DNA of 64,000 bases from an uncultured Chloroflexia bacterium (GTDB taxonomy: Bacteria; Chloroflexota; Limnocylindria; Limnocylindrales; CSP1-4), in the NCBI GenBank assembly GCA_963766735.1, contig CAVYBU010000003.1, positions 325,587 through 389,586 of the forward strand. Reading direction: 5' to 3'. The position numbers and the translations under genes are program-made. The notes under the pieces are model-generated. The model ran no database searches, had not been told where the DNA came from, and worked only from the letters and a program-made list of their open reading frames with translations. This document shows, in pieces, positions 2,275-23,544 of the stretch. The number at the start of each line of letters is the position of its first letter. Position 1 is the first letter of the stretch.

Positions 2275-2295
2275 TTCGGGATCACTCCCGGCCGG

Positions 2296-4312: not shown

Positions 4313-7300
4313 ATGACCTGCTCGAGTTGCGGCACCGAGAACGAGGCGGGTCGCAAGTTCTGCACCGAGTGCGCCACCCCGCTCTCGGCCTCGTGCCCGG
4401 CGTGCGGCACCGCCAACCCGCCCGGCGCCAAGTTCTGCGGCGAGTGCGCGACGCCGCTCGTCCGCGCCCGTCCGGCGCGCGGCCGACCGTGCCGCGGGAC
4501 CCGGCGGCCCGGGGCGCACGCCATCCGGCAGCCCCGTGCCCGTCGCCGAGCGCCGGCTGGTGTCGCGTCCTGTTCGCCGACCTCGTGGGCTTCACGCCGT
4601 TCGCCGAGGAGCGCGACGCGGAGGAGGTGCGCGAGACGCTGACGCGGTACTTCGACCTCGCGAGCGGACGTGATCGGCCGGTACGGCGGCACGGTCGAGA
4701 AGTTCATCGGCGACGCCGTCATGGCCGTCTGGGGAGCGCCCATCGCGCACGAGGACGATGCCGAGCGGGCCGTGCGCGCCGCGCTGGAGCTGCGTGGACG
4801 CCGTCCGCGCGCTGGGCCCCGGGATCGCAGGCCCGTGCCGGGGTCCTCACCGGCGAGGCGGCGGTCACCCTCGGGCGCCACCAACCAGGGGATGGTCGCG
4901 GGCGACATCGTCAACACCGCCTCCCGGCTCCAGTCGGTCGCGGCGCCGGGCACCGTGCTCGTGGGCGAGGCGACGGAGCGGGCCGCGTCGCGCGCGATCG
5001 CCTTCGAGCCGGCCGGCGAGCACGCGCTCAAGGGGAAGGCGGCACCCGTCCCCGCCTGGCGCGCCCTGCGCGTCGTCGCCGAGCGCGGTGGCCGCAACCG
5101 GAGCGACGCCCTCGAGGCGCCGTTCGTCGGCCGGGACGAGGAGCTCCGCCTGCTCAAGGACCTGTTCCATGCCACCGGGCGGGAGCGCCGTCCGCGCCTG
5201 GTGAGCGTCATCGGGCCGGGCGGCATCGGCAAGAGCCGCCTCGCCTGGGAGTTCGCGAAGTACCTCGACGGCCTCGTGGAGCCGGTCTGGTGGCACGCGG
5301 GGCGCTCGCCCGCCTATGGCGACGGGATCACCTTCTGGGCGCTGGGCGAGATGGTCCGGGGCGGGCCGGGCTGGCCGAGGCCGACGACGAGGCGACCACG
5401 CGGGCACGGATCGCCGAGACCGTGCGGACCACGTGCAGCGATCCTGCCGAGCGGCGCTGGATCGAGCCCGCGCTGCTGGCGCTGCTGGGGGTCGACGACC
5501 GGGTTCGGGCCGGACGAGCTGTTCGCCGCCTGGCGCACGTTCTTCGAGCGGCTGGCGGCGAACGCCCCCGTGGTCATGGTGTTCGAGGACCTCCAGCACG
5601 CGGATCACGGGCTGCTCGACTTCATCGACCACCTGATGGAGTGGAGCCGGGGGGTGCCGATCATGATGGTCACGCCTCGCCCGGCCGGAGCTGCTCGACC
5701 GGCGCCCCGACTGGGGCGCGGGCAAGCGCTCGTTCACCTCGATCCACCTCGAGCCCCTCTCGCCGGCCGACATGGAGCGCCTGCTCGCGGGCCTGGTGCC
5801 CGGCCTGCCGGCCAGGCCGCCGCGGCCATCGTGGCGCGAGCGGACGGCGTGCCGCTGTACGCGGTCGAGACCGTCCGGATGCTCCTCGCCCAGGGACGCC
5901 TGGTGCTCGAGGACGGGGTGTGCCGGCCCGTTGGGACCCTCGACGAGGTCGCGGTGCCCGAGACGCTCACCGCCCTCATCGCGGCGCGCCTCGACGGCCT
6001 GGACCCGGCCGACCGGGCGCTGGTCTCCGATGCCGCGGTCCTGGGCCAGGCGTTCAGCGTGCCGGGCCTCGCGGCGGTCGCAAACCAGGCGAGGCCGAGC
6101 TCGAGCCCAGGCTCCGGGAGCTCGTCCGGCGCGAGCTGCTCACGCTCGACGTCGACCCCCGCTCGCCCGAGCGCGGCCAGTACGCGTTCGTGCAGGCGCT
6201 CATCCGGGAGGTCGCGTACCACACGCTCGCGCGGCGGGACCGCACGCTCCGCCACCTCGCGGCGGCCCGCTACTTCGAGAGCCTCGGAGCAGACGAGCTC
6301 GCGGGCGCCCTCGCGGGCCACTACCTCTCGGCGTACCGGAACACCCAGCCCGGTCCCGAGGCCGATGCGCTCGCCGCCCAGGCCCGGGTCGCGCTCCGGG
6401 CCGCCGCCGACCGGGCCACCGCGCTCGGCTCGCACGCGCAGGCGGTCGGCTTCCTCGAGCAGGCCCTGGAGATCACGACCGATCCCGCCGACCGGGCACA
6501 GCTCCACGCGAGCGCGCTCGCCGCCGCGGGCGAGGACCTCGACCTCGCGGCCGTGGAGCGCCACGCGGAGGCCGCGGTCGCGGAGCGGCGGCGAACCGAG
6601 GACCGGGAGACCATCGCCCAGGCGATCGCCGACCGGGCGTACCTGATCAACGTCTCGCTCTGGGACCCGGCGCGCTCGCTCGCGATCGCCTCCGAGGCCT
6701 GGGAGGAGTTCTCGGACCTCGAGCAGACCCCGGCCGGTGTCGCGCTGATGGCGGCGCTCGCGTGGTCGTACCTGGTTCTCGACGACATCGCCCAAGCGAT
6801 GTCCTGGTTCGACCGACTCCTGCCGATCGCGGAGCGGCTCGGGCTCCTCGAGGCGACGGCGGGGGGCATCCTCGGGCGGGGCGAGTCACTGCTCGTCGCG
6901 GGCCGACCTCGGGAGGGCATGGTCCTGCTGCGCGGGGCCCACCAGCTCGCCCTCGCGTACGACCTGCGCGACCGCGAGCTCGAGGGCCCGGATCCTCATG
7001 ACCGCCAATGAGCAGTGGGGCGAGCCCGCTGTGGGCCTCGCGCTTGCCCGCGAGGGGCTCGAGATCGGCCGGCGCCGCGGGTCCCGCCTGTACGGATCCT
7101 GGATGGTCGGGAACGGCTGCGCCTGCGCGCTGCGCACCGGCGACTGGGACTGGGCCGCGGGGCTGCTCGATGAGTGGCTGGTCATCGAGTCCACCGAGAT
7201 CAGACGGGCCGAGTTCTTCGTTGACCGCGCGATCCTCCGCTCGCACCGGGGCGAGGACCCGACCGGGGACCTCGCGGAGGCGGCCCGGATCCTGGGCGAG

Positions 7301-7831
7301 GGCCGAAACACCTGGACAGAGCTCGGGTCCTGGGAACTCCTGGCCGGGGCATGGGCCGCGTTCGCCGGCGGCCGTCCCGACGAGGTCCGCCGGCTCGTGG
7401 AGCGCGCGGCCGAGCTGACGAGAACCCTCGCCCCGATCGCATACCCGCTCCTCGTCCGGAGTGCGCTGTGGGCCGGTGACGCCGAGGGGGCCGCCTCCGC
7501 GCTCGCCTCGATGGAGGCCTCGGGATACCTCGGCGCGGCCCTCGCGGCCGACCGTCTCGTCGCCCGGGCCGGGATCGATGCCCTCGAGGGCCGCGGCCCG
7601 GCCGCGCTGGCCGGGTACCGCGAGGCGCTCCGCGCCTACCGCAAGCTCGGGCTCGCCTTCGACGAGGCGGCGGCAGCCGTGGACATGGCGGTCCTCCTGC
7701 CGTCCCCGGAGCGCGGCGCCTCCGACTTCGGGACGGCGATCGGGGCCGCCCGCGACACGCTCGAGCGTCTCGGCGCGCGCCCTTTCCTCGCCCGGCTCGA
7801 CGCGGCTCGCACGAAGCAACCGACCGGGTGA
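4313..7831 (+). CDS. Double zinc ribbon - class III adenylate/guanylate cyclase - AAA ATPase - TPR protein (multiple frameshifts)
   Basis: MTCSSCGTEN..FCTECA..CPACGTAN..FCGECA; 'VLFADLVGFT'; 'VEKFIGDAVMAVWG'; 'GDIVNTASRLQS'; Walker A 'GPGGIGKS'; 'VFEDLQHAD'; TPR-like C-terminus, pieced together from several frames. Confidence 0.9.
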
Positions 7832-7902
7832 GCGACAGGCTCCCCGGCCGGGGGCAAGGCCGCGACGGTCTGTCAATGCTGGTGGTCGTGCGCCGCGAGC
7901 GC

Positions 7903-8087
7903 CGCAGGGTAGGCTTCCGGGTGTCGCTCGCGAAGCAGATGCGCTTCCTGAGCACGAGCTTCGTCGGGGCGTGGCGCAACGGTGGCGCACGTGCTTTGGG
8001 AGTCCCCGGGGCCTATGCGGTGTAGGGTCGGCCCGTGCCGAGCACGAACCGCCGAGCGGCGTAGGCGCCGATTATTAGGGGCTACGC
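7903..8087 (+). repeat. Junction module J2 (tRNA-Pro 5' half 7965-8002)
   Basis: TAGGCT 7910; atgcgcttcctgagcacga; tRNA half identical to 23890-23927; element ends gcgtaggcgccgattattaggggctacgc. Confidence 0.92.
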
Positions 8088-8788
8088 GAGTTCAAATTGT
8101 GCCCAGTCGGTCCACCGAAACGGCCCGGACCGGGATGGACGTCGAGTCGTCCTGGGCGCCCGAGAGTTGCCCCCTACAGGCTGGAGAGGACGACCATCAG
8201 GGCAAGGACGAAGACAATTCCTGACAGTTCGAGTGCGAACCCCAGGCGCAGCCGACGGACCGTGTCGGCGCGCCCAGCGGCGACCCGTGCCTCTGTCGGG
8301 ACTGCCCACAGGGCATCGTCGCCGGCCAGCCGCCGGGCTGCCGGGCTCGTGATGAGCCCCCCAACGGCGAAGATGGCGACCGTGACAGCGATCGCAGCGA
8401 GCCAAACGATCCCGTACTGGCTGCTAAGCGCGTCGATAGATCGTATCGGTCCGAAGACCGTTCCCCGCACGACCCCCAAGACGACGGCGAGCAGGGCCGC
8501 ACCGATCAGAAGCCGTTCCGGGCCGAGGATCACGGTTCGGACGAGGTCGCGCTGGCGTTCGATCGGCTGCCCGAAGACGAACGGCAGCAAGACGAGGCTG
8601 GCGAACACGGATGCGCCCAGCCACGCGGCTCCGCCGAGGATGTGGAGGAACTGGACGAGCGCGAGCCCGTAGTCCATGTGGCTCTCCGATGCGGACCGGT
8701 AGTTCGGCATTCGTATGTATGAGGCGGTCAGGCTGCCACGTCAACAGGAGGGCGGCTTTCAGGACGAACCAGGCTCGGCGGAGCCCGG
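8088..8788. repeat. Cassette C2 (701 bp), duplicated at 17905-18605
   Basis: Same length and ends (gagttca.attgtgccc ... ggcggagcccgg); about a dozen substitutions by eye. Confidence 0.93.
8174..8677 (-). CDS. Four-TM membrane protein (CopD/DUF2269-like)
   Basis: MDYGLALVQFLHILGGAAWLGASVF pattern; GGAGAG RBS; four hydrophobic segments. Confidence 0.75.
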   Translation of the reverse strand: MDYGLALVQFLHILGGAAWLGASVFASLVLLPFVFGQPIERQRDLVRTVILGPERLLIGAALLAVVLGVVRGTVFGPIRSIDALSSQYGIVWLAAIAVTVAIFAVGGLITSPAARRLAGDDALWAVPTEARVAAGRADTVRRLRLGFALELSGIVFVLALMVVLSSL

Positions 8789-8980
8789 GAGCGCTGTAGG
8801 CTAGTCTTCTGATCGTCGTTCGGAGGCAGCACATGCGCTTCCTGAGCACGAAACCAGTCGGGGCGTGGCGCAACGGTGGCGCACGTGCTTTGGGAGTCCC
8901 CGGGGCGTATGCGGGGTAGGGTCGGCCCTGCCGAGCACGAGCGGACGAGCGGCGTAGGCACCGATTATTAGGGGCTACGC
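8789..8980 (+). repeat. Junction module J3 (tRNA-Pro 5' half 8859-8896)
   Basis: Leader gagcgctgtaggctagtcttctg nearly identical to the leader of the intact tRNA; tRNA half; element. Confidence 0.93.
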
Positions 8981-9217
8981 CAGCACGGACCGGTGACCTG
9001 GCCGTTCCGGCCGTCGAGGGCTCTGACGCTCGAACGGCCCGTCCCATTGGCGGCTTGGCCGAGGCTGGACCCGGATCGGGACGCCACCGAGCGCCTCACG
9101 CTGACTCGGCTGTGGCGGTGGGGGATCAGGTTCCGGTCGGTGACGATGACGTAGACCGCTCGCTGACTCTGGTTCGACGATGGAAGAGTTCAGCTCAACG
9201 CAAGGTCCGCGGCTCGG

Positions 9218-9619
9218 TCACGGGCATGCGTCGTCGGCAGGCTGGTTCGGGGCGGTGGGTTGGGTGCAGCCCATCAGGGCCGCGTGGTACCCATCCGCTT
9301 GGCTGACGAGAAGGATGGCGTCGGGCATTCCAGTCCCGGATGCCAGCAGCGCCGGCTGGCCCTGCGCGTTCACGTGCTCGGCGGCATGCATGGTCCAGGA
9401 CGATACCGGTCCGCCGGTCGATGCGGCATAGGCCACCGCCCGCCGTTGCAGCGCTTGACAGCGTTCGAGCGGCAGCGACAGACCGGCGCAATCGATCTCC
9501 GGTCCGATCCTCCAGCCCTCGACCGCGGCGGGTCGCCCGATCGTGGAACAGGCCAGAACGGCCGCCGTCGCAAGCGTGAGGCCCGCGATGCGGGCCGAGG
9601 ATCGCCTCACCCGTGTCAT
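9218..9619 (-). CDS. Hypothetical lipoprotein
   Basis: MTRVRRSSARIAGLTLATAAVLAC lipobox; paired Cys. Confidence 0.55.
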   Translation of the reverse strand: MTRVRRSSARIAGLTLATAAVLACSTIGRPAAVEGWRIGPEIDCAGLSLPLERCQALQRRAVAYAASTGGPVSSWTMHAAEHVNAQGQPALLASGTGMPDAILLVSQADGYHAALMGCTQPTAPNQPADDACP

Positions 9620-9915
9620 GACGCGATGCTCGCACGGCTCGATCACGGAGACAAGGCTTGCAGGCCCACGCGGCGCCCGGAACTCCAGCCTGGCGTTCTT
9701 GGCCGCCCAAGCACCTCGGAGTCTACGTGTCAGGACCCCACGGGACCCTGGGGACGCTCCGTCGCCGACCGCCTCTCGCGTGGCTCCGGCCTTCACCGGG
9801 CTCACGGATCCTCGCCGGTCTTGGCGTGTAAGAACCGCCGATCTCCCGTGTCGTGAAGACAGGGACACGGGACGGGCTCCGGAGAGTGAGCCGCCGGGAC
9901 CCCGGAGGACCAGAG

Positions 9916-10610
9916 ATGAAGCGGACTCGGAAGTTCGGCGGGCGAGTCGTTACGATGGGTCTCACGGCAGGGTTCGCCCTGATCGTCACGGCGGGAACGG
10001 CACTGGCCGCGAGCGCGACCGTCTCGTTCGCGTCGAGCCAGCCGTTTGCGCCGGTTACCACGGGCTATGACGTCAACTGGTCGAATGGCGGTGGCGCAAA
10101 CTCCGTCTGGATCAAGGGATTGACCGGGGTGAATGTCACGAGCCCGCAGGGGGCGAGGGCCGGGCGGGCTCAACAGCACGACGATGACGTACAACGGGCT
10201 GAGCGGACGCACGATCACCGTGTCGCTCAAGGGCAAGTTCGACTACGCGTGGACCTGCAGCGCGAACTACCCGGCCCAGGCGACCGGTGGCACATCCGTG
10301 GTCCTCGGCCTGTTCGACGTAACTGCCAACCGCCTGGTCAGCAACCAGACCGTCTACCAGCGCGCGTTGCCGGCGTGTCACACCGGCAACATCAGCATCT
10401 TCCCGCCCTTCTACACCACGTCCGACAGCCAGCAGACCGGAACAGTCGCCCTCCCTGCACGACGCCGCGAAGTTCGGAGGCGGCCAGATCGTCTGCGGGT
10501 CATCGCTACGGGTGATCGGCGGGGCTGGAGCCTGATCTGCCTCCTCCGGGATCGTCACCACGACCCTGCTAGTCCGGGGATCGGGCCTCTCGGCGACCCT
10601 CACCTACTAG
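9916..10610 (+). CDS. Secreted beta-rich hypothetical protein (frameshifted)
   Basis: GGAGG RBS; signal peptide ending ALA; Thr/Ser/Gly-rich body continuing across frames. Confidence 0.55.
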
Positions 10611-10825
10611 CCCATCGCCCGCGCCTGCGGAGTCGAACGATGGCCCGTCCGGCAGACGCCCGGGCGGGCCGTCCCGCATGTGACGTTCGGCTCTGGCCGG
10701 ACGGTGCCAACTTGCGATGCTGCGCCAGTCGTGCCCGTGATCCGGGTCACGGTGCAGCGGAGCGTCCCGGTGCTCGAGCAGCCGCGTGCTGATGGCCGCG
10801 CGGTCCGACTCGGTGGAGGGACGGG

Positions 10826-12493
10826 ATGGGTCTGGACGCGAGTGCGTTCGAGGCGGCGTACGCCGCGAACGCCGACCGCCTGTACGCGACGAGCCTGCGG
10901 ATCGTGCGCGAGCCGGCCGCGGCGCAGGACATCGTCGCCGACGCGTTCGTCAAGGCCTGGACACGGCCAGAGGCGATCGACAATGTGGGCGCTTGGCTGG
11001 GCACCGTCGTCCGCAACGCGAGCCTCAACGCGGTCCGCGACGAGCGCCGGACCGTCCCCCTCGAGCCGAACGACGGCGAGGAGCCGACGGCCGGCCAGCT
11101 CGCCTACGCCGAGCGCGACCCGTTCGCCGACCCGGCCCAAGCAGCTGCCGCCGGCGACTCCCTGCGCACCGTCTGGAACCTCATCGAGGACCTGCCCGCC
11201 GAGCAGCGCGCCGTGCTCGTGCTGCGGGTCGGCGAGGAGCAGCCGCTCGAGGACGTGGCCGCCGCCCTGGGCAAGACCCCCAACGCCACTTACGTCCTGC
11301 TTCACCGGGCGCGGGCCGCCCTCCGCCGCCGGTACGCCGAGCGGGTGGTCGGACGGGCCGGGGTCCCGGAGGCGTGTCGGGCCTGGTTGCCCGACCTCGT
11401 CGCCCGGGCCGAGGGCAAGCCCGTCAGTGACGCGTTCGAGGCCCACCTCGCGACCTGCCCATCCTGTGCCCAGAGCGAGGACGAGGTCCGGCGGATGCCG
11501 CTCGCCTGGGTGTCGCACCCCTCGTCATCGCGCCGGCCGGTCTGGAGTCCACCGTCAAGGCCTCGCTGGCAGCAAAGGGGGTCGCGGTATCGGGCGGAGC
11601 GGCATCGGGCAAGGCGGCCGTTGTCGCGTCAGACCACCACCACCGGCACCGGCGGCCTGTCGGCCGTGGTCATCCTGCCCCTCATCGCGATCGCAACCGT
11701 CCTGGTCGTCGGCGCCGCGGTCCTCGTGACCGGCACGCTACAGCTGCCCGGGGCGGATCCCACCCTGAGCCCGAAGCCGGTGGCAGTGGTCGTAGCACCG
11801 ACGCCGGCCTCGACCGCTGCTGTCGGGATATTCGTTGCGACACCGACGCCGTCGCCCGTATGGTCGGCCGTGCCGGCGAACACGGCCACAACGTCACCGA
11901 CAGCCGTTCCCATCGTCCGCGTCGAGGTACCCGTCGCTGCATGTGCCAGTGACTTCGGCGGGACAGGCGCGGAGGGGGAGACCATGCCGCCGACAGCAAC
12001 AATCGAGATCCCTGTCGACTTCCGGTCCCGCGTCTCCGCCTACTTCGACGGCTTTAGGTCGCATGTCGGACCATCGGACTGGGATTGCTCGGCAGGCGTC
12101 GGGGTGAACGCCTCATGGATGGCGATCTCGAATCCCGCCGACGCTGCCCAAGTCGTGTCCTACGACATGCCGGGGGATATCGGAGCAGTCTGGGACCTTG
12201 CGTGCCCGCTGTTCGAGAATGCGAGGACCTCCTACGAGGGCGACTTCGGGGAATGCACCCTGGCGGCTCCGCCACGAGAGGAACGTGTGACGCGCCTGTC
12301 GCCGACTGCCCAGCAGTTCCTTGATCCCGCCCATGTCAAGGGGACCGGTGAAGGGTCTGGGGGTCGGTACCAAGCCCTCGGGGTGCTGGTGTATGACGGC
12401 AACTTCGCCGCCAAGAGCACCTGTCTGATGCCGGAGGGCCAGCAGCTGCTGTGTGAGGCGATCGTTCATGCGTTCGTCGCGGGGTTCAAGTAG
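10826..12493 (+). CDS. ECF sigma factor fused to a zinc-finger anti-sigma motif, a TM helix and an extracellular domain
   Basis: 'AQDIVADAFVKAW', 'AWLGTVVRN', 'LPAEQRAVLVLR..VAAALG..ATYVLLHRARAALRR', 'EAHLATCPSC', then TM and Pro/Thr linker. Confidence 0.8.
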   Translation: MGLDASAFEAAYAANADRLYATSLRIVREPAAAQDIVADAFVKAWTRPEAIDNVGAWLGTVVRNASLNAVRDERRTVPLEPNDGEEPTAGQLAYAERDPFADPAQAAAAGDSLRTVWNLIEDLPAEQRAVLVLRVGEEQPLEDVAAALGKTPNATYVLLHRARAALRRRYAERVVGRAGVPEACRAWLPDLVARAEGKPVSDAFEAHLATCPSCAQSEDEVRRMPLAWVSHPSSSRRPVWSPPSRPRWQQRGSRYRAERHRARRPLSRQTTTTGTGGLSAVVILPLIAIATVLVVGAAVLVTGTLQLPGADPTLSPKPVAVVVAPTPASTAAVGIFVATPTPSPVWSAVPANTATTSPTAVPIVRVEVPVAACASDFGGTGAEGETMPPTATIEIPVDFRSRVSAYFDGFRSHVGPSDWDCSAGVGVNASWMAISNPADAAQVVSYDMPGDIGAVWDLACPLFENARTSYEGDFGECTLAAPPREERVTRLSPTAQQFLDPAHVKGTGEGSGGRYQALGVLVYDGNFAAKSTCLMPEGQQLLCEAIVHAFVAGFK

Positions 12494-12594
12494 CGGCTGG
12501 GCAATGCGCGACGAGTTGTATGAATCGCCGCCACTCGCGGGTCATGAGAGCAGGAGCGGATCACGAGATCCGCCTTCGGTGGGAGGTCAAGATC

Positions 12595-14016
12595 ATGGAG
12601 TCGCAGGAACGCGGCGCATCGATCGCCGCATCGTGTTCGGCGTCGCAGGCGCCACTCTCGTAGTCGTCCTTCTCGGCGTAGTGGCCGCGAACACCGTGCT
12701 GAAGGATTTGGGCCGGCTCAGATCCAGGCCATCATCGACAGTATGGCCGGACGGAACGAGACGCCCGTGCTTGCCCAGTGGCAGGAGTTGGGCCGGGAAG
12801 TTGGGCGTCGCCACAGCCCCCGGCGACGTGACCTTCACCGCCAGCGATGTGCTGGTCGAGGCAGTCAAGGACTCGGACGGCATGTACACGGCGTCATGGA
12901 CCCTCGACGCCGAACGCGACGGAGCGAATTTTGGGTCGACGGTCTACACGGCAACCTTCCAGCGAGGTCCGAAGGACGGCGAGTGGGGAGCGCTGTTCGT
13001 CGACGGCGAGCCGACGCCCCTTGCCCAGCTGCTGCCATCCGTCACCAGTGAGGCCGCGGCAGCGGCGCTCGTCGCGGGGATCCAGCCGTTCGCCGAGCGG
13101 TTCGGGGCGGAGGTCAGGCTGGACACGGCCGAGGTCCCCGGCGATCCCGCGCCTGCCGACCAAGTCATCAACGAAGAGGCTTGGCTGCAAAGCGAGGAGG
13201 AGACTGAGCGGAACGGAGAGGACGGGCGCAAGACCCACTTCGCCCTCGATGCCGAAAGCACCCAGATCGACCTGTTCGACCGAGTGGACGCCGCGCCTGT
13301 CCAGGGGATCGTCCATCGAGGGAGGCTTGCAGAGGCAGAAATCCAGCAGGGGCAGCCGCCACCCTCGCGTTGTTCGTGGGAGGCCGTGCGTACCGGGAAT
13401 GTCACTCAGGTCAAGGCCATCCTCAGCGGGGCCGACACGCTGGAGAAGTCGGGCCTCGATTTCATGACCGCCGACAAGAACATGACCGGGTGGTTGGACA
13501 CGCTTGCGGGCATTGATCCCGACCGGCTCGCGGTCACGGGTACTCGCGGCCACTATGAGGTCGCTCCCCACGACACCGGCGTCACGCTGCGCAATGACGC
13601 GGCAGCCGGCGGGCCGGGTCATTGGTGCCCCAGGGCTGTGGCTGCGAGATGCCCAGCCGAACGCAACGGCCACGATCCGCGATACGGAGCCGTGCAAGGG
13701 CAAGCCCGCCGCGAGCATCCGTGTTGTCGCGGACCGCGTCATGTACAGGCTCGACGCGGGCCCGCTGCTGTTCATCTCCTCGAAAGCCATGTCCGACGGG
13801 GAAGACTGCTACTGGGCGCAGTCCCTGTGGGTCACAGAGGTGAACGGTGATGCGCGTGACAGCCTCTCATCTGGAGCCGACGGCGGATCGATCGCGATAG
13901 GGCTCTCCGGGTTGTCGGCCGGCGACAAGGTCGATCTCAAGCTCGGCACGGGCTACTTCAACGAGAAGGGCAAACCGGTCGACACAGCCCATCTGAAGTT
14001 CACCTTGCCCGAGTAG
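12595..14016 (+). CDS. Membrane-anchored secreted hypothetical protein (several frameshifts)
   Basis: GGGAGG RBS; N-terminal TM 'IVFGVAGATLVVVLLGVVA'; coding-like composition over ORFs 12453..13850 and 13504..14016. Confidence 0.5.
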
Positions 14017-14266
14017 GACGGGTCTCCGAAGGGTGGATCGGGCTCCTGCGGACGTCATACGACGCGTCGCAGGACCCCGTTTGAGCTCGGATGGTCGCCG
14101 CGGAACTCCAATGGGCTCAGGCCGGACGCGGTCGCGACCACCGAGCGTTGATCCCCCATGACTGCCCGCGCCAAGGCGAGGAAGCCAGTTCGACGGGCCC
14201 CACGGCGCCCCGGCTTCGTCCAGGCGGCATGCTCCGACGCGTCCACCATTGGCAAGCCATATGGTC

Positions 14267-16277
14267 TCAGGGAGACCATATGGCTGCCCGTTCCGCCTGT
14301 GTCGGGCACCAGGGGACGGACCCGTCCATTGCGTCGAGCGATCCGCCCGCCACGAGCACGCGGCCTGACGATAGGCCAATCGCCGCGCCACGCGACCGAG
14401 CCTTCGGCATTGGCGCCAACTCGGTCGACAGACCCGTGGCCGGGTCGAAGAGTTCGACCGACGTCAACGCCGTGGCGTCCGGCTGTCCGAGGTGGCGTTC
14501 GCCGCCCGCGAGCAGCACCCGGCCGTCGGTCCGTACCGCAATCGCGGCCGCGGAGCGGTCGGCGAGCGTTCGCCCGATCACTGACCAGCCCGTATCGGGG
14601 CTGTAGCGAAGCACGTCGCGCGACCCGCCAACGAACAATGCCGACGAGCCGAAGAACAAGGCTGATCCGTCGGGCAACGCGACGGCGCTGCCGAGCGCTC
14701 CCGGCGGGGTCAGGTTCTTCCACGCGCGGCTGCCGGGCGACCAGGCGGCGGCGAGCACCGTCTCCCCGTCGGTAGCCCGCGACCCGCCGAACACCAATGC
14801 CCCGCCGCTCCCGAGGGCGACGCCACCCGTGAGATCCCCGTCCCAGGGGAGTTCGCCGGCAGTCTTCCAGCGGTCGGCAGCCGGGTCGTAGACCTCGGTT
14901 GAGCGGGTCGAGTCGCTTGACACAGTGCTACCGCCGGCGACGAGGACGCGGCCGTCGGAAAGGGTCACGGCCACCGGCGCCCGGCGCCCAAGGCTCATCG
15001 TGGCGACCTCGGCCCATTGTCCGGTATCGCTGCTCCAGATCCGGGTGCTCGACTTGGGCACGAGTCCTGCGTTGAGGCCGCCGGTCACGAGCACGCGGCC
15101 GTCAGGGAGTGCCGCGACGGCGTAGTAGGCCCGCGCGTTGTCGAGGCTGCCCGACCTGATGAACCGGGCGGTGTTGGGACTCCAGACGCGCGCCAAGGGC
15201 ACCGGCATTCTGTCATCGCCTGGATAGGTGCAGGGGCCAGTCGTATCCATGAGCACGACCAGGTCACCCGGTCCTGGCACGAGCACGGGGCTGTCGGCCA
15301 TGGCGGGGCCCTGGACGTCTGTCCACGTCCCCCCCACGGACTCGAGGGAGGGGGCAGGTGTCGGCGTGGGCGCTGGCGTCGGCGCCCGGGTGGGCGAGGG
15401 GGAGGCCCGACGGCGTCGGCTCGGGCTCGGTGCCATCGGAGTGGGTGTGGCGGACCCCGAAGGTTGTGACGTCGGCGTTGGTGACGGCGTTGAGGAGCAC
15501 GGTCACGAAGTAGGCACCCGTCTGCTCAAGGAGGCTCCAGAGCAGCTGGCGGGCCTTGATCCTCTGGACATCGTCCGGCCCCGGAAGGTAGTGCGGGAGC
15601 ACGAGGTCGGGCAGCAGGTCGTTGACCATGTTGATGACCCCGCCCCAATCCTGCTTCACGGCCGCAGCCCGCACCTCGGGGTAGTGCCAGAAGATGTAGC
15701 TTGCGACCGTACCCGTCGCCTCCCCCGGGAAGCCGGCGAGGCCCAGGAACGTAGTCACGATGATGAGGATGGCCTCGTAGATTGCCGTCTCCTGGGTGAC
15801 GCCCGCGGTGATGACGATCTCGCCCCGCGGCTCGTCCTCATGGATGTCGAGGGCGAATTTGCCCCCTGGCGGGAGGAACCCCCACAGGTAGCTGTTGCCG
15901 TCACCCCAGCACGACCCCTCGATCGCGCACGCAGCGCCCAAGCCCTGCTCACCGCCGCCCCCAACGTAGAAGGCGAGGGCCAGCGAGCCGTTGAGCCGGA
16001 ACGCGTCGAGGACCTTGGAGAGGGCGACGGTGTGCACCTGGGTCATGTCGTCGATGATGGCCGTTTCGTTCTTCAGCACGACCCGCACGGTGCGCGGCGT
16101 CTCCTGGTCGCGGGTGAGGCTCACGCTCGAGCCGGCGCCGTCCACGCTCCACCGCCCATGGTCGGGCCAGTCGGGCATGCGGATTGGGTACTCGTAGGCC
16201 GCCACCGGGGCAGCGCCGAGGGGTAGGGCGAGGACGACGGCCGCCATCGCCGCAGCGAGTGCTCGCAGCATCGTCAC
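14267..16277 (-). CDS. Secreted kelch-repeat (beta-propeller) protein; frameshift near 15430
   Basis: Signal peptide; Pro/Thr linker; repeated 'LPDGRVLVTGG', 'LSDGRVLVAGG', 'SVELFDPATG'. Confidence 0.75.
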
Positions 16278-16810
16278 TGCCCCCGCCAGATGACGCCGAC
16301 GTCGAGGTCGCCGTCGGCACGGGTGGTGATGAGGGCCGCGTGGTCGTCGTCGAGCGCGACCATCGTGGTGGTGCCGTCGCGGCTCACAACTGTCTCGGGG
16401 GCCTGGCCCCCGACCTTGCTGATCGCCGCCTGGTAGAAGGCGATGGCTGCCGCGGCGGTCATGCCCGGCACCCGGAAGGTGACCGAGGTGATTGCGTCGT
16501 ACTCACTGCCGGCGACGACCTGGCTGCCGGGCGCAACGAGCGCTGCTGGCAGGCTGGGGGGAGGCGTGACGCCCTCAGCGACTGGCAGGTTGAGCACGAC
16601 GGGCGCGCCGGGCGTCCCGAGAAGGCCGGGCGGCAGCGGCGGCCGGCTCGCCTCCGCTCCCGATGTGGGCAGGGGAGGAAACGAGTGGGCGCTAATGGAG
16701 ACTGGAGAGCCGGCGGGCGCCCCGGTCGGGCTGTCTGCGCCGCATGCACCGAGCAGGCACGCGAGGGCTCCGACGGCCAGGACTCCAGCTAGCCGATGCG
16801 CTTGACGCAT
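16274..16810 (-). CDS. Hypothetical lipoprotein
   Basis: MRQAHRLAGVLAVGALACLLGAC lipobox; stop overlaps the next start. Confidence 0.65.
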   Translation of the reverse strand: MRQAHRLAGVLAVGALACLLGACGADSPTGAPAGSPVSISAHSFPPLPTSGAEASRPPLPPGLLGTPGAPVVLNLPVAEGVTPPPSLPAALVAPGSQVVAGSEYDAITSVTFRVPGMTAAAAIAFYQAAISKVGGQAPETVVSRDGTTTMVALDDDHAALITTRADGDLDVGVIWRGQ

Positions 16811-16973
16811 AGGACCACCCCATGAGGCCTGATACCTAATGTCCGTAGCGTGTCCGCGGCGAGCCCTACGCACACCACGCCCTTCTTCCCGTGTCCTGGA
16901 ACCGAGCTCATCGTCCGAGGTCGTGGCGCGATGGCTCTCATCATCGGCTCAGTCCACGTCCACCTGTGGGTTA

Positions 16974-17445
16974 CTACTTCAGCGTCACAGACTGCGCGAT
17001 CCCCGCGCAAAGGTCGTCGCTCAGGCCCTCGCACGCGAGCTCGAACGCCACCCCGCCCTTGACGATCAGATACACGATTGTCCGGGTCCTGCTCCGTGCC
17101 CCCCGAGACCTCGATCGCCTCTCCGGTCGGGAGGTTGACGGACTGCTTTGCAGTGTTGGTCATGCCATAGTCCTTCAGCTTCCAAGCGACGTCGTCGGCC
17201 ACGGTGTCCAGGGACTCAAATGAGCCATATTTCCTGAATTGGAAGGTCCCCAGCGACGAGACCCACTTGTCCCATTCGCCACCGGACGAGGCCTGCCACG
17301 ACCCGGCTGCAGGCACGATGAGACTGTATGTCGCGCCATCGTGGCGCTCGCCGGCTGGAAGCGACTGACTCGCCTCGCCCCCACAGCCGACCATCACCGC
17401 CGTCACCGCTGCCAGCGCGAGCTGGGCAGCCCAGCGCCTTGTCAT
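16974..17445 (-). CDS. Hypothetical lipoprotein (probable frameshift near 17070)
   Basis: MTRRWAAQLALAAVTAVMVGC lipobox; GGGAG RBS. Confidence 0.6.
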
Positions 17446-17762
17446 AGCAGGCTCCCTTCACGAGACTCACACCAGCCGGAACCGTGCGGCTGCACTCTGG
17501 GACCGGTGGCGACCCCACGCAGGCAGGCTGGGTGCCGGGCGCTCGAGACGCCACGTGCCGGAGCGACCGTCATGCAGGGCCGAAGGTAGCCGTATCGTCT
17601 GTGGTCGGATCGTCCCTGCCGGTACAGGGTCGGCCGCGCCCGCCAATGGCTATCCACTCGTAGAAGGGAGGGGGCCGATGACGAGGATCGGTTTCCAGGG
17701 CGCCATCAGGGATCGTTCCGGCCGCGTCAGGGGTCGAGCGGACGCCCGAGATATGCTCCTCA

Positions 17763-17904
17763 AGCGGTGTAGCCTAGGCGTCCGCTTCTCGAACGAGGAA
17801 GCACATGCGCTTCCTGAGAGTCCCCGGGGCCTATGCGGTGCAGGTTCGAGGGTCCTGAGCGTGGCTGGCCGAGCGGCGTAGGCACCGATTAATAGGGGCT
17901 ACGC
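17763..17904 (+). repeat. Junction module J4, lacking the tRNA half (~48-bp deletion)
   Basis: gcacatgcgcttcctgag joined directly to agtccccggggcctatgcgg...gattaataggggctacgc. Confidence 0.9.
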
Positions 17905-18494
17905 GAGTTCAGATTGTGCCCAGTCGGTCCACCGAAACGGCCCGGACCGGGATGGACGTCGCGTCGTCCTGGGCGCCCGAGAGTTGCCCCCAATAGGCTG
18001 GAGAGGACGACCATCAGGGCAAGGACGAAGACAATTCCTGACAGTTCGAGTGCGAACCCCAGGCGCAGCCGACGGACCGTGTCGGCGCGCCCAGCGGCGA
18101 CCCGTGCCTCTGTCGGGACTGCCCACAGGGCATCGTCGCCGGCCAGCCGTCGGGCTGCCGGGCTCGTGATGAGCCCCCCAACGGCGAAGATGGCGACCGT
18201 GACAGCGATCGCAGCGAGCCATACGATCCCGTACTGGCTGCTAAGCGCGTCGATAGATCGTATGGGTCCGAAGACCGTTCCCCGCACGACCCCCAAGACG
18301 ACGGCGAGCAGGGCCGCACCGATCAGAAGCCGTTCCGGGCCGAGGATCACGGTTCGGACGAGGTCGCGCTGGCGTTCGATCGGCTGCCCGAAGACGAACG
18401 GCAGCAAGACGAGGCTGGCGAACACGGATGCGCCCAGCCACGCGGCTCCGCCGAGGATGTGGAGGAACTGGACGAGCGCGAGCCCGTAATCCAT
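17889..18494 (-). CDS. Second copy of the four-TM membrane protein; stop codon lost, reads into J4
   Basis: Same protein as 8174-8677; CTG TAG changed to CTA TTG, adding ~34 aa. Confidence 0.75.
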   Translation of the reverse strand: MDYGLALVQFLHILGGAAWLGASVFASLVLLPFVFGQPIERQRDLVRTVILGPERLLIGAALLAVVLGVVRGTVFGPIRSIDALSSQYGIVWLAAIAVTVAIFAVGGLITSPAARRLAGDDALWAVPTEARVAAGRADTVRRLRLGFALELSGIVFVLALMVVLSSLLGATLGRPGRRDVHPGPGRFGGPTGHNLNSRSPY

Positions 18495-18605
18495 GGGGCT
18501 CTCCGATGCGGACCGGTAGTTCGGCATTCGTATGTATGAGGCGGTCAGGCTGCCACGTCAACAGGAGGGCGGCTTTCAGGGCCAACCAGGCTCGGCGGAG
18601 CCCGG
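17905..18605. repeat. Cassette C4, second copy of C2
   Basis: 701 bp, colinear with 8088-8788. Confidence 0.93.
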
Positions 18606-18793
18606 GAGCGCTGTAGGCTACTCTTCTGGTCATCGCTCGGGGCGCACATGCGCTTCCTGAGCGTGAAGCTCGCCGGGGCGTGGCGCAACGGTGGCGCACG
18701 TGCTTTGGGAGTCCCAGGGCCTATGCGGGGTAGGGTCGGGGGCCCGAGCACGACCGGGCGAGCGGCGTAGGCACCGATTATTAGGGGCTACGC
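18606..18793 (+). repeat. Junction module J5 (tRNA-Pro 5' half 18674-18711)
   Basis: TAGGCT 18614; tRNA half; element ending gcgtaggcaccgattattaggggctacgc. Confidence 0.92.
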
Positions 18794-18844
18794 GAGCACG
18801 ACAGACAGCCTCGTTGCCGACCGCGCTGACGGGTGGGCTTTGCG

Positions 18845-19782
18845 TCACTTGCTGATGAGGGTCGACCGCCAGGCCACCTCGCTGTCCGGCGTGATCGCGA
18901 GAAGCGTGATCGCCGACCCGGCCCCGGCAGGCTCGACCGCCGTTGCGTAGACCGTCCCGTCGGCGCCGGCCACCACGACATCCCAGCGCCCGGCCGGGTT
19001 CGTGAGCTTGACCGGCCAGCCGTCAACGACCCGGCCGTCCGGCCCGACCGCGACGACTCGCCTGCTGCTCTTCGCATCAGCCGGCGCCAGAAGGACCAGA
19101 AGCACATGCTCACCGGGGCCGAGGGCCGGCACCGTCCGCCACACGCCGCATCCTGTATCGCCCAGCGGCATTCGCCCTGCTCCCCGATGGGCGCACCGGC
19201 CGACCACGGCCACCCGTCGCGGACGGTGCCGTCGGGTCCGAGCGCGTGGACGACGACGCGGTCGCGGTCGTCGACGCCCAGGACCCACGCGGATCCGCCT
19301 GGCTCGAGCACGGGCCTGATCGGCGCGTACCCGCCCGCAAAGGTCGCCTCGGAGATGCGCGGCGCGACTCCGGCCCGGGGGAGGCCGTGTGACCGGCGCA
19401 ATGCTCGGCAGCGCGCGTCACCCGAATTCCAGGAGGGGGAGACCCGGATCCGTCCGTCACAGGCGTCACGCTGCCGCTCGCGGGCGGCAAGCGGCAGCTG
19501 CGACGACCGGCGATGGGATGCGATGCAGCCAGACGCACGATCGGGCTCGCGCAGGCACGGGCGTGGGGGCATCGGGCGGCCAGGATCGGATCCGCGGCGC
19601 TCGGGCAGGGTGACCCGCGGCAGGTGCTCGAGGGCCAGGGCATCGCCCCGGAACGCATGCGCCCTGCGGGCACAGGCCGGGCACGCGGCGAGGTGCGCCT
19701 CGAGGCGGCCGCGCTCGTACGCCGCAAGCGGGTAGTCGATCGCGGTGGCGGCGAGTGCGAGGAACGTGTCGTGCGTGGTCAT
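18845..19782 (-). CDS. zf-HC2 anti-sigma factor with an extracellular propeller-like tail (frameshifted or partly deleted)
   Basis: 'LEAHLAACPACA'; start overlaps the sigma stop; 'DGRVVDGWPV' repeats. Confidence 0.6.
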
Positions 19783-20353
19783 TGGGACGCCTCCGCCGAC
19801 TCGAGCCGGCTGCGGACCCGGATGCGGGTCCGGCAGAGCAGGGTGCGGGTGGCTGCCTCGGAGCGCCCGATCGCGGCGGCGATCTCGGCCCCGCTGAAGC
19901 CTTCGGATGACAGGAGCAGCGCCGCCCGGGCTCCGGGGTCGAGGTCCGCGAGGATGCCCACGATCGCGGCCCGGCCCTCGCGCGCGAGGTAGCTGGCCTC
20001 GGGGGTGACGGTCGTCACCGGCGGCGCGGTGCGGTGGTCTGGATCCTGACCAGCCCGCGCAGCGCGGTGGAGAGGCGCCGGCCGCGGCTGACCGCGAGGT
20101 TGGCACCCACCCGGTACAGCCAGGCCCGGATGTTGTCGGGGGTCCGCCCCGCCCGCACCTCGCGGGTCAGGCGCAGGTAGGCCTCCGAGAGCAGGTCCTC
20201 GGCGACCCCGGGGTCGCGCGCGGTCCGGACCAGGAACGCGTACACCTCCGCGTGGTGGTCGGTCCAGGCGGCCACGACCAGCGCGTCCGCCTGCGCGGCG
20301 CGGGTGGCGCCCGCGGCGTCCACCGATTCGAGAGGAGAGGTCACCGGTTCCAC
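19779..20353 (-). CDS. ECF sigma factor (frameshift near 20030)
   Basis: 'AEDLLSEAYLRL', 'RAWLYRVGANL'; region 4 'GFSGAEIAAAIGRSEAATRTLLCRTR'. Confidence 0.85.
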
Positions 20354-20356
20354 GCC

Positions 20357-20387
20357 GATGAGACGCTATGCCCCGCCTGGTGTTTCA
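20357..20387 (-). promoter_or_regulatory. ECF-type promoter AAC-N16-CGTCTCATC (autoregulatory, probably leaderless)
   Basis: tgaAACaccaggcggggcatagCGTCTCATC directly before the GTG; same motif at 21870-21900. Confidence 0.6.
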
Positions 20388-20501
20388 GGGCAGGGGCAAG
20401 AGGGCGACGACGGGCGGGTGCGAATGACCGCGGGCAGGGTGTCCCGGAAGGGCGACCAAGCGGTGAGGCCGCGGGCGGGGAGTCGCGCCGGACAGGGCAG
20501 G

Positions 20502-21842
20502 TCAGCGCAACAGCCAGGCGACCTGCTGGCCTTCCGCCGTGGATCCGCTGATGCCGACGACACCGGCCGGCCCGTCCGCGACGAGCCGCGGGCCGTAGTC
20601 GAACTGCGGCCGCTCGGCCTGCGGCAGCTGCGTCCAGGAGACGCCGTCGTCGCTCACCCAGGTCTCGTGCCTCACCCCGCCCCCTTCCCTGCTCTCGGCG
20701 CCGACGGCCACATAGCCGCGATCCGAGAGGACGAGATCCGTCACGGCGGTCACGCTCACCGTGTCTTCGGGGTCCTCCGCGACGGCGGGCGGCCCGGCCG
20801 GGAGCTCCTGCGACTTCCAGCTGGTGCCGTCGGAGGACGACCAGATCGTCGGCGCGCCGGCGCGTCCCGCGTCGACGTCCCAGCCATTCCGCCCGGCGAG
20901 CACCCAGGGGTTGCGGTCGCCCGCCGGGGCCGTGCCCGCGAACACCTCGGCTCCCTGGCCCGGGAAGCCGTCGAGGACGCTCCACGACGCTCCGTCGGCC
21001 GTGATCGCGAGTGTCGTGTTGAGCTCGTAGCCGCTGGCCGCGAGGAGATAGGGCCCGGACGGGTTCGCGACGCCCACGGGAGCGCGGTCGTAGCCCTCCC
21101 AGCCGGCCGGGGGCACCTGCTCGGTGGCTGCCCATGACGTGCCGTCGGCGGAGTGCCACAGCATCCTGCCTCCCAGGCTCTCGCCGGACCAGTCAGAGAG
21201 CGCCGCCGCCCAGCCGCCCTCCGCCACCGGCCATGCCGCGACGAGCTCGCTCAGCTCACCCTTCCCGTTCCCCGTGTAGGCGCGGCGCCAGGCGACGCCG
21301 TCGTCCGAGATCCAGGCGATGGGCGAAATCGAGCAGTCAGGCCCGCCGCCCGTGCTGCCGGGTTCGGTGAGACTGCACGGCGTGTGGCTGTAGCCGCCGA
21401 CGACGAGCACCTCGCGCCCGTTGGTCGCGATCGCCCGGCCGAGCAGGCCGTTCGCATCGGTCGCTTCCGAGCGGTCGCCCTTCAGCGGGAGCTTCACGTT
21501 CTTCCAGGACGCGCCGTCAGCCGAGAACCAGACGCTGCCGGTGGTCCCTTCGAGGGCGACGTAGCCCTCGTCGAACCCGATGATGCCGTTGACGCGAGTC
21601 ACCGGGATGACCCCCAGGCGGTGCCAGGCGAGCGTGTCGGCTGAGCCCGTCCAGGACGACGCCGACGGGCCGGGAGACCCCGGCGAGGGTGCCGCCGTCG
21701 GTGGGATCGGGGCGGAAGTCGCAGTCGGCGACGCGGTCGGAACTGCTGTTGACGGAACTGGGTCCGGCGTTGTCGAGGCTGCCGGCGCAACGCAACCCGC
21801 GACGACAAACAGCACGGCCAGCGCCCCGAGGGCTCGAGTCAT
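20502..21842 (-). CDS. Lipoprotein with Asp-box/BNR-like repeats (beta-propeller)
   Basis: VVAGC lipobox; repeated 'WFSADGASW', 'WISDDGVAW', 'WSSSDGTSW'. Confidence 0.8.
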   Translation of the reverse strand: MTRALGALAVLFVVAGCVAPAASTTPDPVPSTAVPTASPTATSAPIPPTAAPSPGSPGPSASSWTGSADTLAWHRLGVIPVTRVNGIIGFDEGYVALEGTTGSVWFSADGASWKNVKLPLKGDRSEATDANGLLGRAIATNGREVLVVGGYSHTPCSLTEPGSTGGGPDCSISPIAWISDDGVAWRRAYTGNGKGELSELVAAWPVAEGGWAAALSDWSGESLGGRMLWHSADGTSWAATEQVPPAGWEGYDRAPVGVANPSGPYLLAASGYELNTTLAITADGASWSVLDGFPGQGAEVFAGTAPAGDRNPWVLAGRNGWDVDAGRAGAPTIWSSSDGTSWKSQELPAGPPAVAEDPEDTVSVTAVTDLVLSDRGYVAVGAESREGGGVRHETWVSDDGVSWTQLPQAERPQFDYGPRLVADGPAGVVGISGSTAEGQQVAWLLR

Positions 21843-21869
21843 GACCCACCTCTCACAGCTGCGAACGAT

Positions 21870-21900
21870 GATGAGACGCGCAACACGAGCAGGCGTTACC
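21870..21900 (-). promoter_or_regulatory. ECF-type promoter AAC-N16-CGTCTCATC
   Basis: ggtAACgcctgctcgtgttgcgCGTCTCATC upstream of the lipoprotein. Confidence 0.6.
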
Positions 21901-22211
21901 GCGCGCCGGCCGCGAGCCGGTGTCCTCGCATCTGAGGAGGGATCTCCGTGCCCAGGATGGATGCCGGGGAGTCCCGGCGGCTGGCCCACCGCGCCGTCGA
22001 CATCGTCGCCGACATCTCGCCGGCACCCAGGGCGACCCCTCGCAGCCGGCCGCGCTCCCGGTCGGCCCGGACCGCGCTGGCCGCTCCTGGCGGGATCGCT
22101 GGGTGAGCGGCCAGATATTGGGGCCACCCCAGTCGAAGACCGGTAACAGACAGGGGCGTCCGGGCGTCCCGTGGTCGTAGATGTGCCCTTCACCTCGCTC
22201 GAGGAGAGCAG

Positions 22212-22589
22212 ATGACCACCCATCGCCAGCTAGTCGGCCGGATCACCGTGGCGCTGCTCCTCATCGTGATGGCAGCCGGGTGCAGCCGGTTTGGTCCTCA
22301 GCTGACCATCGGCGTCGACCTCACCGGCGGTCCGAAGGAAGCGACGCTGACCGTCGACTCGTCCGGCCCGGGCATGACCGGTGGCGAGGACGTAGTGATC
22401 CTCAATGGGGAGCGGTTTGGGATGAGCATGCCGCTCCCGTCCACGTGGGAAGTCAAGGTCGACGGCAAACACATCATCGGCTCGGGCGATCGGACCGGCG
22501 CGCTCCCGTCACCGGGCCAGGGGCAGGACGTGACGATCTGTATCCGGGTCGCCGCGGATGGCACCGTGAAGCTCGTTGACGCCTGCTAG
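22212..22589 (+). CDS. Hypothetical lipoprotein
   Basis: GAGGAG RBS; 'ALLLIVMAAGC' lipobox. Confidence 0.7.
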   Translation: MTTHRQLVGRITVALLLIVMAAGCSRFGPQLTIGVDLTGGPKEATLTVDSSGPGMTGGEDVVILNGERFGMSMPLPSTWEVKVDGKHIIGSGDRTGALPSPGQGQDVTICIRVAADGTVKLVDAC

Positions 22590-23509: not shown

Positions 23510-23516
23510 GCCAAGA

Positions 23517-23544
23517 ACCGTATCACCGGTGATACACTTGTCAA
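23517..23544 (-). promoter_or_regulatory. TA operon promoter TTGACA-N16-TACGGT with a perfect 16-bp operator palindrome (23520-23535)
   Basis: gtatcaccggtgatac overlaps the spacer and -10; GTG start 7 nt after the -10. Confidence 0.7.

Follow-up and report, generated by a model that had tools for sequence, protein, structure and literature searches.

Tandem gene cassettes parted by tRNA-derived modules upstream of a tRNA-Pro gene in an uncultured Limnocylindria bacterium, and a 701-bp cassette that is present twice

The tRNA-Pro locus, its modules and their cargo

A 64,000-nucleotide stretch from the genome of an uncultured Chloroflexia bacterium (GenBank assembly GCA_963766735.1, contig CAVYBU010000003.1, positions 325,587 to 389,586; hereafter the window) contains a row of gene blocks upstream of a tRNA gene, and one of these blocks, a single-gene unit of 701 bp (cassette B), occurs twice. 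The anchor and primary attachment site of the array is an intact tRNA-Pro(UGG) gene, which scores 68.4 bits. Upstream of it lie six modules in the same orientation as the tRNA gene, parting blocks of 0.7-8.8 kb. The five tRNA 5′ halves upstream of the gene are on its strand. The genome of the window, G000, is a metagenome-assembled bin (94% complete, 4.2% contamination), and other G numbers below denote relatives in its genus, for which 70 genomes were available. The features of the locus are as follows.

C3:321335-321530, 4.2 kb upstream of the window: further module
1876-2067, plus strand: module m1, with promoter-like motif (1876-1888), leader, tRNA half (1946-1983) and right arm (1984-2067)
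2068-7896: cassette A, with a Crp-like cyclic nucleoside monophosphate (cNMP)-binding regulator (2296-3486, minus) and an adenylate-cyclase/AAA_16 regulator (4670-6646, plus), from Pfam
7897-8087, plus strand: module m2, with degenerate promoter-like motif (7897-7909), leader, tRNA half (7965-8002) and right arm (8003-8087)
8088-8788, minus strand: cassette B copy 1, one gene, for a CopD-like membrane protein
8174-8677 from Met12 (167 aa), or 8174-8710 from the first ATG (178 aa), minus strand: open reading frame (ORF) of gene B, copy 1
8789-8980, plus strand: module m3, with motif GAGCGCTGTAGGC (8789-8801), leader, tRNA half (8859-8896) and right arm (8897-8980)
8981-17761 (8.8 kb): cassette C, with an extracytoplasmic function (ECF) sigma/anti-sigma fusion-like ORF (10826-12493, plus), a Kelch-repeat protein (14267-15436, minus) and ORFs without a Pfam match
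17762-17904, plus strand: module m4, with degenerate left arm, no tRNA half, and right arm (17821-17904)
17905-18605, minus strand: cassette B copy 2, the same gene as in copy 1, stop codon lost
17889-18527, minus strand: ORF of gene B, copy 2, 212 aa, stop codon lost
18606-18793, plus strand: module m5, with a left arm orthologous (92% identity) to the arm beside the B gene in G023
18794-23821: cassette D, with anti-sigma (18781-20106, minus) and ECF sigma (20015-20365, minus) genes
23822-23889, plus strand: left arm at the tRNA end of the array; the left half of the module unit spans 23822-23927
23890-23964, plus strand: intact tRNA-Pro(UGG) gene

The module is a unit of ~200 bp, found by repeat search and by alignment of six places. 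Its left arm comprises the motif GAGCGSYGTAGGC, a leader of ~55 nt and the tRNA-Pro 5′ half, which begins at the first base of the tRNA and stops at ..CTTTGGGAG, the 3′ edge of the anticodon loop. The right arm, of 85-90 nt, begins with TCCCCGGGGCCTATGCGG and ends with GAGCGGCGTAGGCACCGATTATTAGGGGCTACGC; across 47 copies its mean column identity is 78%, and GAGCGGYGWAGGCNNCGATTAT is the most conserved block. The motif GAGCGSYGTAGGC stands on both sides of the cargo. The left arm of m1 resembles the type that lies next to the integrase gene in relatives. In m4 the leader's CTTCCTGAG is fused straight to the right arm, the middle of which is of another subtype than that of m2, and the right-arm middle of m5 is likewise of another subtype than its orthologues in G019 and G081a. 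A separate observation concerns the leader, which upstream of the tRNA (23855-23885), as in every left arm, mimics the anticodon arm of the tRNA (GCACATGCGCTTCCTGAGCACGA versus GCACGTGCTTTGGGAGCACGA); this look-alike is conserved across the genus, array-less genomes included, and the deletion in m4 spans exactly from the look-alike to the tRNA anticodon arm.

The left-arm motif has a TAnnnT form and stands before every intact tRNA. GGAGCGGTGTAGGCTAGTC, identical to the motif at left-arm starts, also occurs at 30601-30615, 15 nt before the start of ORF 30616-32484, where it fits the promoter of a short-leader or leaderless mRNA. From its form, its place before intact tRNAs and the copy before the 30616 ORF, we infer that the left-arm motif is a promoter.

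Each module thus presents a promoter-like motif followed by a tRNA 5′ half, and the right arm is conserved over 47 copies (78% mean column identity), as might be expected of genes for a tRNA-derived small RNA, or of a regulatory element, whose repeats reflect selection and not recombination. We consider this extremely improbable. The modules are without any Rfam match, their fold z-scores are weak (-2.4 to +0.2), and the copies are restricted to the region upstream of one tRNA, with their ends precisely at the anticodon loop. RNAalifold on the 47 copies led us to reject the small-RNA reading: 0/16 pairs outside the tRNA part showed a compensatory change and the only helices were tRNA-like. Across the window, Rfam at gathering thresholds reported only two tRNAs and one riboswitch, and a permissive search of 7800-9100 returned nothing credible (best E 0.88). 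A right-arm palindrome (GCGTAGGC..GGCTACGC) was also rejected: judged by eye over the 47 aligned copies, T/A changes in one half of it have no match in the other, and the fold scores are weak.

Modules bound every block in the window, and no block encodes a recombinase; nor was a recombinase gene found in window positions 1-27000 or in the 20 kb upstream. Cargo genes occupy both strands, with the B, Crp-like, sigma and anti-sigma genes on the minus strand and the cyclase gene on the plus strand. Two parts are fused in cassette D. The left one (to ~20465) is common to four other species and the right one has a counterpart in G073 only (96% identity); the joint, which is the same in G073, falls inside the promoter-like left-arm motif, between GCGGTG and AGGCC. 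A 5.7-kb contig of G000, C5, ends inside a left arm (C5:1-65), and C5:59-956 is a 93% copy of window 19569-20465 in which the left-arm motif is unbroken, at the place where the window is fused to unrelated sequence; the C5 end may be a second array fragment or related-strain DNA in the bin.

Cassette arrays, integrase genes and breakpoints in the genus

The arrangement is not confined to G000. By a hand count from the table of matches, ~27 of the 70 genus genomes have at least one tRNA half running into a right arm. All tRNA-half matches (72/72, at 28 loci) lie on one strand, and the halves are upstream of the tRNA in 22/22 loci that hold both halves and an intact tRNA. The 45 spacings between successive halves range from 894 to 14,898 bp with a median of 3,731 bp, and the shortest is that of the B unit of the window. 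The genes that flank the array were not conserved beside the tRNA in 14 array-less relatives.

Some of these relatives carry a recombinase gene beside the tRNA. In G019 the gene for a 315-aa tyrosine recombinase has its start ~90 bp from the tRNA, with transcription directed outward, and orthologues (63-83% identity) have the same place, judged from coordinates, in G023, G005, G068, G013, G085, G009, G083 and G049, which gives nine genomes in all; decayed fragments were found in G050, G063 and G015. The protein has Pfam Phage_integrase and SAM-like domains. It scores below the cut-offs for XerC (158 versus 335 bits) and XerD (151 versus 330 bits), and below those for integron integrases (TIGR02249, 48.1 versus 265 bits; NF011946, 27 versus 435 bits). 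Its best solved relatives are XerD, XerA and phage Gp33, from seven sequence hits in the PDB (5vfz_A, Gp33, E 1.3e-10). It is a Xer-like tyrosine recombinase that lacks an arm-binding domain. An orthologue was not found in G000, where the best matches are Xer-like genes of 25-31% identity on other contigs, none at E<=1e-40, and no remnant was found in window positions 1-24100 at E<5. As an aside, paralogues of the integrase (47-56% identity) elsewhere in the genus show a single in-frame TGA or TAG in a full-length match (~19 rows, hand count), which could reflect decay, recoding or another cause.

The position of the crossover was mapped by all-against-all comparison of arrays between genomes. 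Homology of the left-hand cassette continues through the left arm to tRNA position 36-37 (G058/G081a), and homology of the right-hand cassette starts 1-31 nt before the half. In G050 a right arm comes after the integrase fragment, its leader and the half; the same sequence in G085, G083 and G068 continues into the tRNA. All halves end at ..TTTGGGAG, and arm identity tracks the identity of the adjacent cargo in most pairs. Because the breakpoints between genomes fall at tRNA positions 36-37 and the arms track the cargo, the crossover is placed at the anticodon loop and the moving unit consists of right arm, cargo, left arm and half. The modules are therefore attP-like junctions of serially integrated, mostly integrase-less cassettes. 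The sigma/anti-sigma cassette (18794 to ~20465) recurs in G019, G081a, G058 and G063 with other neighbours and at other distances from the tRNA; turnover therefore occurs at the level of the cassette.

These observations suggest how the array may have been built. The array, which extends over window 1876-23964 and includes the module 4.2 kb upstream of the window, would consist of integrated gene cassettes. Each incoming element would bring a left arm (promoter-like motif, leader and tRNA 5′ half) and a right arm of ~90 nt; its insertion would rebuild the tRNA and displace the old 5′ half upstream, and the junction with the neighbouring cassette would form an attP-like module. The recombinase may be the Xer-like integrase that lies beside the tRNA in relatives and would have been lost in G000, so that the G000 array is probably frozen or reliant on an enzyme supplied in trans.

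Three further observations touch on the array. Within the Crp-like gene of cassette A, three tandem copies of a 93-bp unit (3175-3453, 94-100% identity) would repeat 31 aa near the N-terminus of the protein. Within the 20 kb that precede the window (L011), three successive Kelch-repeat/ECF sigma gene pairs (L011 8223-15690) come immediately before the first module and have no modules between them, and tandem paralogy there is therefore independent of modules. Finally, a solitary degenerate tRNA 5′ half with right arm and no left arm lies far from any tRNA gene on G000 contig C30 (C30:258632-258758; L012 8637-8758, minus strand), and ~1.6 kb from it C30:255984-257015 matches ECF sigma cassette sequence at 90%; this half may have been translocated as part of an array or may mark a secondary insertion site.

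The two copies of cassette B

The original prediction held that one 701-bp block occurs twice with identical junctions and about a dozen substitutions, between neighbours that are unrelated to each other. All of this was borne out. Copies 1 and 2 (8088-8788 and 17905-18605) are 701 bp each and align without gaps, with 11/701 positions unlike (98.43% identity); GGGGCTACGC immediately precedes both (ending at 8087 and 17904) and GAGCGCTGTAGGC immediately follows both (starting at 8789 and 18606). Near-identity extends ~37 bp leftward and ~15 bp rightward, into sequence that is conserved in all modules, and inside the block there are identical stretches of 155 and 224 bp. Self-BLAST of the flanking blocks (2068-7896, 8981-17761 and 18794-23821) found no mutual similarity, the sole exception being a 64% paralogous cyclase stretch that involves the block upstream of the window.

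The cargo is a single gene, and cassette B is the smallest cassette seen. Its product is a small CopD-like membrane protein; we call it only CopD-like because it does not reach the gathering cut-off of CopD (PF05425; 18.6 versus 32.1 bits, E 0.0025). Some homologues bear PF05425 in precomputed tables; the name given to homologues by their sources is 'uncharacterized membrane protein'. The 11 differences between the copies comprise four non-coding changes, five synonymous third-position changes, one stop change and H11P. The stop change (TAG to TTG, in copy 2) extends the frame by 34 codons into the right arm of m4, where it ends at 17889. Since homologues in a large protein collection are 162-167 aa long and H11P lies upstream of Met12, Met12 (8677) is probably the true start, which would leave H11P in the leader. 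For the resulting 167-codon gene there are five synonymous versus no non-synonymous changes (dS, the synonymous divergence, 0.036; P = 0.002), and for the longer reading five versus one (P = 0.008). The claim that all changes but the stop were synonymous thus holds for the 167-codon gene, and fails from the first ATG, where H11P is non-synonymous. The predicted synonymous bias is present on either reading and speaks against a fresh duplicate that drifts neutrally.

A metagenome scan with the B protein gave 44 loci, all at most 43% identical bar one 36-residue fragment at 64%, and the module arm is absent from all 44 of these and from 10 genus loci, so that the scan yielded no other instance of the cassette. 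In G023 the gene is present at 97% protein identity; the right-hand junction is unchanged and followed by a module, and the left arm beside the B gene is like that of m5; on the other side of the gene it has a second gene instead of a right arm, and no module.

G023, the only close outside homologue, permits a three-way comparison over the gene and its 5′ flank. At 17 sites both G000 copies agree and G023 differs; copy 2 alone differs at five sites, copy 1 alone at two, and all three differ at two. As to the left arm, nine sites of m5 (beside copy 2) and three of m3 (beside copy 1) match G023. Each copy is thus the nearest relative of the other, and the combination of copy 2 and m5 is the linkage found in G023 as well. 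Two acquisitions from a circulating pool, as originally proposed, do not sit well with 17 shared and only five and two private differences; the pool must therefore have been very narrow (the same species or strain), or copying occurred within the genome.

The arms differ far more than the cargo: the right arms of m2 and m4 are 79% identical and the left arms of m3 and m5 81%, versus 98.4% for the cargo. Two clean insertions of a single mobile unit thus do not account for the copies. A move of the whole unit by the integrase predicts that the arms travel along with the cargo, and this is not seen. Two-step unequal crossing-over between modules was rejected, as it predicts that m2 and m3 have most of their sequence in common, and their left arms are only 72% alike. 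The prediction that the cassette moved as a discrete unit survives in part: the block is a discrete unit bounded by modules, and comparison between genomes gives good evidence that the locus is mobile, in that arrays occur in ~27/70 genomes and the integrase in nine, and cassettes recur with varied neighbours in different species; against this stand the unlike arms and an integrase that was not found in G000.

The metagenomic origin of the contig raises the question of whether the assembly merged strain variants of one B locus into a single contig. The bin has 4.2% contamination, the identical 155- and 224-bp stretches in B could tangle a short-read assembly graph, and public contigs over the region are short, with none bridging both copies. 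However, on both sides of both copies, copy-specific bases lie within 8-25 nt of copy-specific module bases, so that the reads must contain all four junctions; cassette C is also flanked by unique sequence. We judge such an artefact very unlikely, in keeping with the original prediction that the second copy is no assembly duplicate.

Alternatively, two whole arm-cargo-arm units may have been acquired separately through the integrase after divergence in different strains, with arms reshuffled in the donor pool; in a variant, copy 1 possibly arrived together with cassette C as a two-cassette circle. The synonymous excess fits selected divergence in separate genomes, the system moves whole units elsewhere, both copies directly flank cassette C, and mosaic arms occur elsewhere, as seen for the right-arm middle of m5 relative to its G019 and G081a orthologues. 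This origin nevertheless still needs a cargo-edge exchange at some point, given that the cargo and both junctions are 98.4% alike and the arms ~80%; moreover, the copies share 17 differences from G023, and the integrase was not found in G000. We regard separate acquisition as unlikely.

The layout B-m3-C-m4-B′, with direct repeats flanking an insert, is also the signature of a single crossover. A circle of B, m3, C and m4 from a sister array could have entered by one homologous crossover inside the resident B (a Campbell-type insertion), and the G023-like bases shift from copy 1 (8175-8447, 4/4 sites) to copy 2 (from 8672 on, as well as in the left arm). Only seven informative sites lie inside B, however, and one is contrary; in addition, the incoming B must still have had identical junctions but 20% diverged arms. 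This route is, in our estimate, distinctly improbable.

The explanation that we favour, with moderate confidence, is that the array arose by serial site-specific insertions into the anticodon loop of tRNA-Pro(UGG), and that the second B copy arose by exchange at the conserved module edges. Such an exchange is suggested because near-identity of the copies stops inside blocks that are conserved in all modules. It would have ended in the edge blocks GAGCGGCGTAGGC..GGGGCTACGC on the left and GAGCGCTGTAGGC on the right. Breaks at the left-arm motif are seen elsewhere too, at the cassette D joint (20465) and as a diverged 30-nt patch at the motif in G019 and G070 sequences that are elsewhere 97% identical. 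The simplest route would be homologous recombination or gene conversion, with modules serving as portable homology and a donor in the same genome or in a very close strain. Both copies would have been under purifying selection until copy 2 lost its stop codon.

Several points weigh against this explanation. The identical edge tracts available for homologous exchange are short (~37 bp and ~16-24 bp), and the 60-bp identical tRNA half was left unused. Purifying selection on redundant copies within a genome is unexpected, and divergence in separate genomes fits better. G023-like bases within B are found in copy 1 on the left (4/4 informative sites), and in copy 2 on the right (2/3 sites) and in the left arm (9/12); this allele switch hints that the crossover lay within B and not at the cassette edges. 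When 7850-9050 and 23700-24100 were scanned for consensus promoters and terminators, 0 sites turned up, and RNAalifold found no covarying structure in the 47 right-arm copies. G000 appears to have no integrase, although at 94% completeness the gene could be missing from the assembly. Lastly, 20 public runs hold part of the stretch as assembled contigs, and in the four runs whose contigs were compared with 1500-21400 the pieces are at most 1269 nt, of low depth, and none covers both copies.

Elsewhere in the window, a c-di-GMP-II-GAG riboswitch aptamer was found at 63811-63895 (minus strand; 64 bits versus a cut-off of 40). Repeats with a 15-bp period (CCCGGCCSCGCTCCA-like, six overlapping 60-nt copies) lie at 29222-29356, close to where ORF 27864-29204 ends and ORF 29099-30610 begins.

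Relation to known systems and significance

Mobile DNA that inserts into tRNA genes nearly always replaces the 3′ end, usually as one or two large islands with an integrase each. The locus shares with such tRNA-gene (tDNA) islands, in particular those of the anticodon-centred site class, an intact tRNA with co-oriented displaced fragments, a restored gene, a crossover in the anticodon loop and a tyrosine recombinase at the tRNA-side end (here in relatives). An integrase inside the element was not found in G000, and was found in nine relatives. Unlike in those islands, it is the 5′ part and the promoter region that are replaced here, not the 3′ part; there are six fragments, the units go down to 0.9 kb, and each carries a conserved 90-nt arm. 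In the Islander survey, 159/3919 islands have a 5′ fragment and 3760 a 3′ fragment, and only four tandem arrays of at least three members are counted, each member with its own integrase (PMC4383910).

Two other kinds of tandem element invite comparison. In the first, cis-mobilizable elements (CIMEs) and the site-specific accretion of integrative elements, blocks that lack an integrase lie between attachment sites, next to an element that carries one and could move them in trans. The blocks of the window, which lie between attachment-site modules and carry no recombination genes, resemble them, whereas the cassettes here are far smaller and more numerous, and arrays outlast the loss of the integrase. 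Dehalococcoides (Chloroflexi) may belong to the same phylum as the organism of the window. It has tandem islands at ssrA, the gene for transfer-messenger RNA (tmRNA), many of them without integration genes and with discordant histories of cargo and integration module; these islands of ~12 kb lie at the 3′ end of the tmRNA gene and have a multi-gene integration module (PMC3146451). Tandem arrays at one small-RNA gene, with many integrase-less units, are common to both systems; they differ in that here the anticodon loop of tRNA-Pro is used, the 5′ side is replaced and there is a single Xer-like recombinase gene.

The likeness to integrons and to clusters of attC sites lacking integron integrases (CALINs) is one of design: a recombinase beside the primary site (in relatives), a row of short, mostly single- or few-gene cassettes, conserved separators and fast turnover. 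In contrast to integrons, the integrase is not IntI (48 bits versus a cut-off of 265) and belongs to the cassette nearest the tRNA (in relatives), the modules are tRNA-derived direct repeats and not attC hairpins (fold z -2.4 to +0.2, no compensatory pairs), and cargo is found in both orientations, where integron cassettes are mostly promoterless and all face the same way behind one promoter. When the arms were folded as single-stranded DNA, no attC-like signal emerged (z-scores -2.4 to +0.2). By the tests that define integrons, the locus is not one. It also departs from XerC/XerD-dif modules, which are bounded by 28-bp dif-like sites, as the recombinase is below the XerC/XerD cut-offs and the right-arm palindrome was unsupported by eye and has weak fold scores. 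The integrase itself resembles the arm-less integrases of the Brujita gp33 type, with ~315 aa and only a SAM-like core-binding and a catalytic domain. Arm-less integrases have small sites and no directionality control, and should not need arms of ~160 bp; here, by contrast, ~160 bp of conserved arm sequence surrounds the core.

Taken together, the locus is a variant of known tRNA-gene islands, characterized by (i) a mirror-image 5′ geometry, (ii) small integrase-less cassettes, (iii) a bipartite module, and (iv) a small Xer-like recombinase. A more far-reaching view, which we consider rather unlikely, is that of an integron-type gene-capture platform that evolved independently in Limnocylindria-like bacteria. 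A small arm-less Xer-like recombinase next to tRNA-Pro would catch and reshuffle integrase-less cassettes, single-gene ones among them, the ~200-bp modules would combine a recombination site with a replacement tRNA promoter and 5′ half, and the edge motifs GAGCGSYGTAGGC would serve as second-level points of cargo swapping.

For this genus of uncultured sediment and freshwater bacteria, the arrays amount to rows of up to six small cassettes, mostly integrase-less, 5′ of one tRNA gene, and the module of each cassette must supply this tRNA, apparently present in a single copy, with a promoter that works. Regulators abound in the cargo, namely ECF sigma/anti-sigma pairs, cyclase-ATPase regulators, Kelch proteins and a Crp-like protein. 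That exchange may occur at the module edges as well is marked most sharply, within the locus itself, by the 701-bp cassette that is present twice. If the cassettes are not moved, the locus clearly records insertions in series and the later disappearance of the integrase. If they are moved in trans, it would represent a simple gene-capture system with a small recombinase and a defined site, of possible use in genome engineering, and could help to explain the rise of integron-like platforms.

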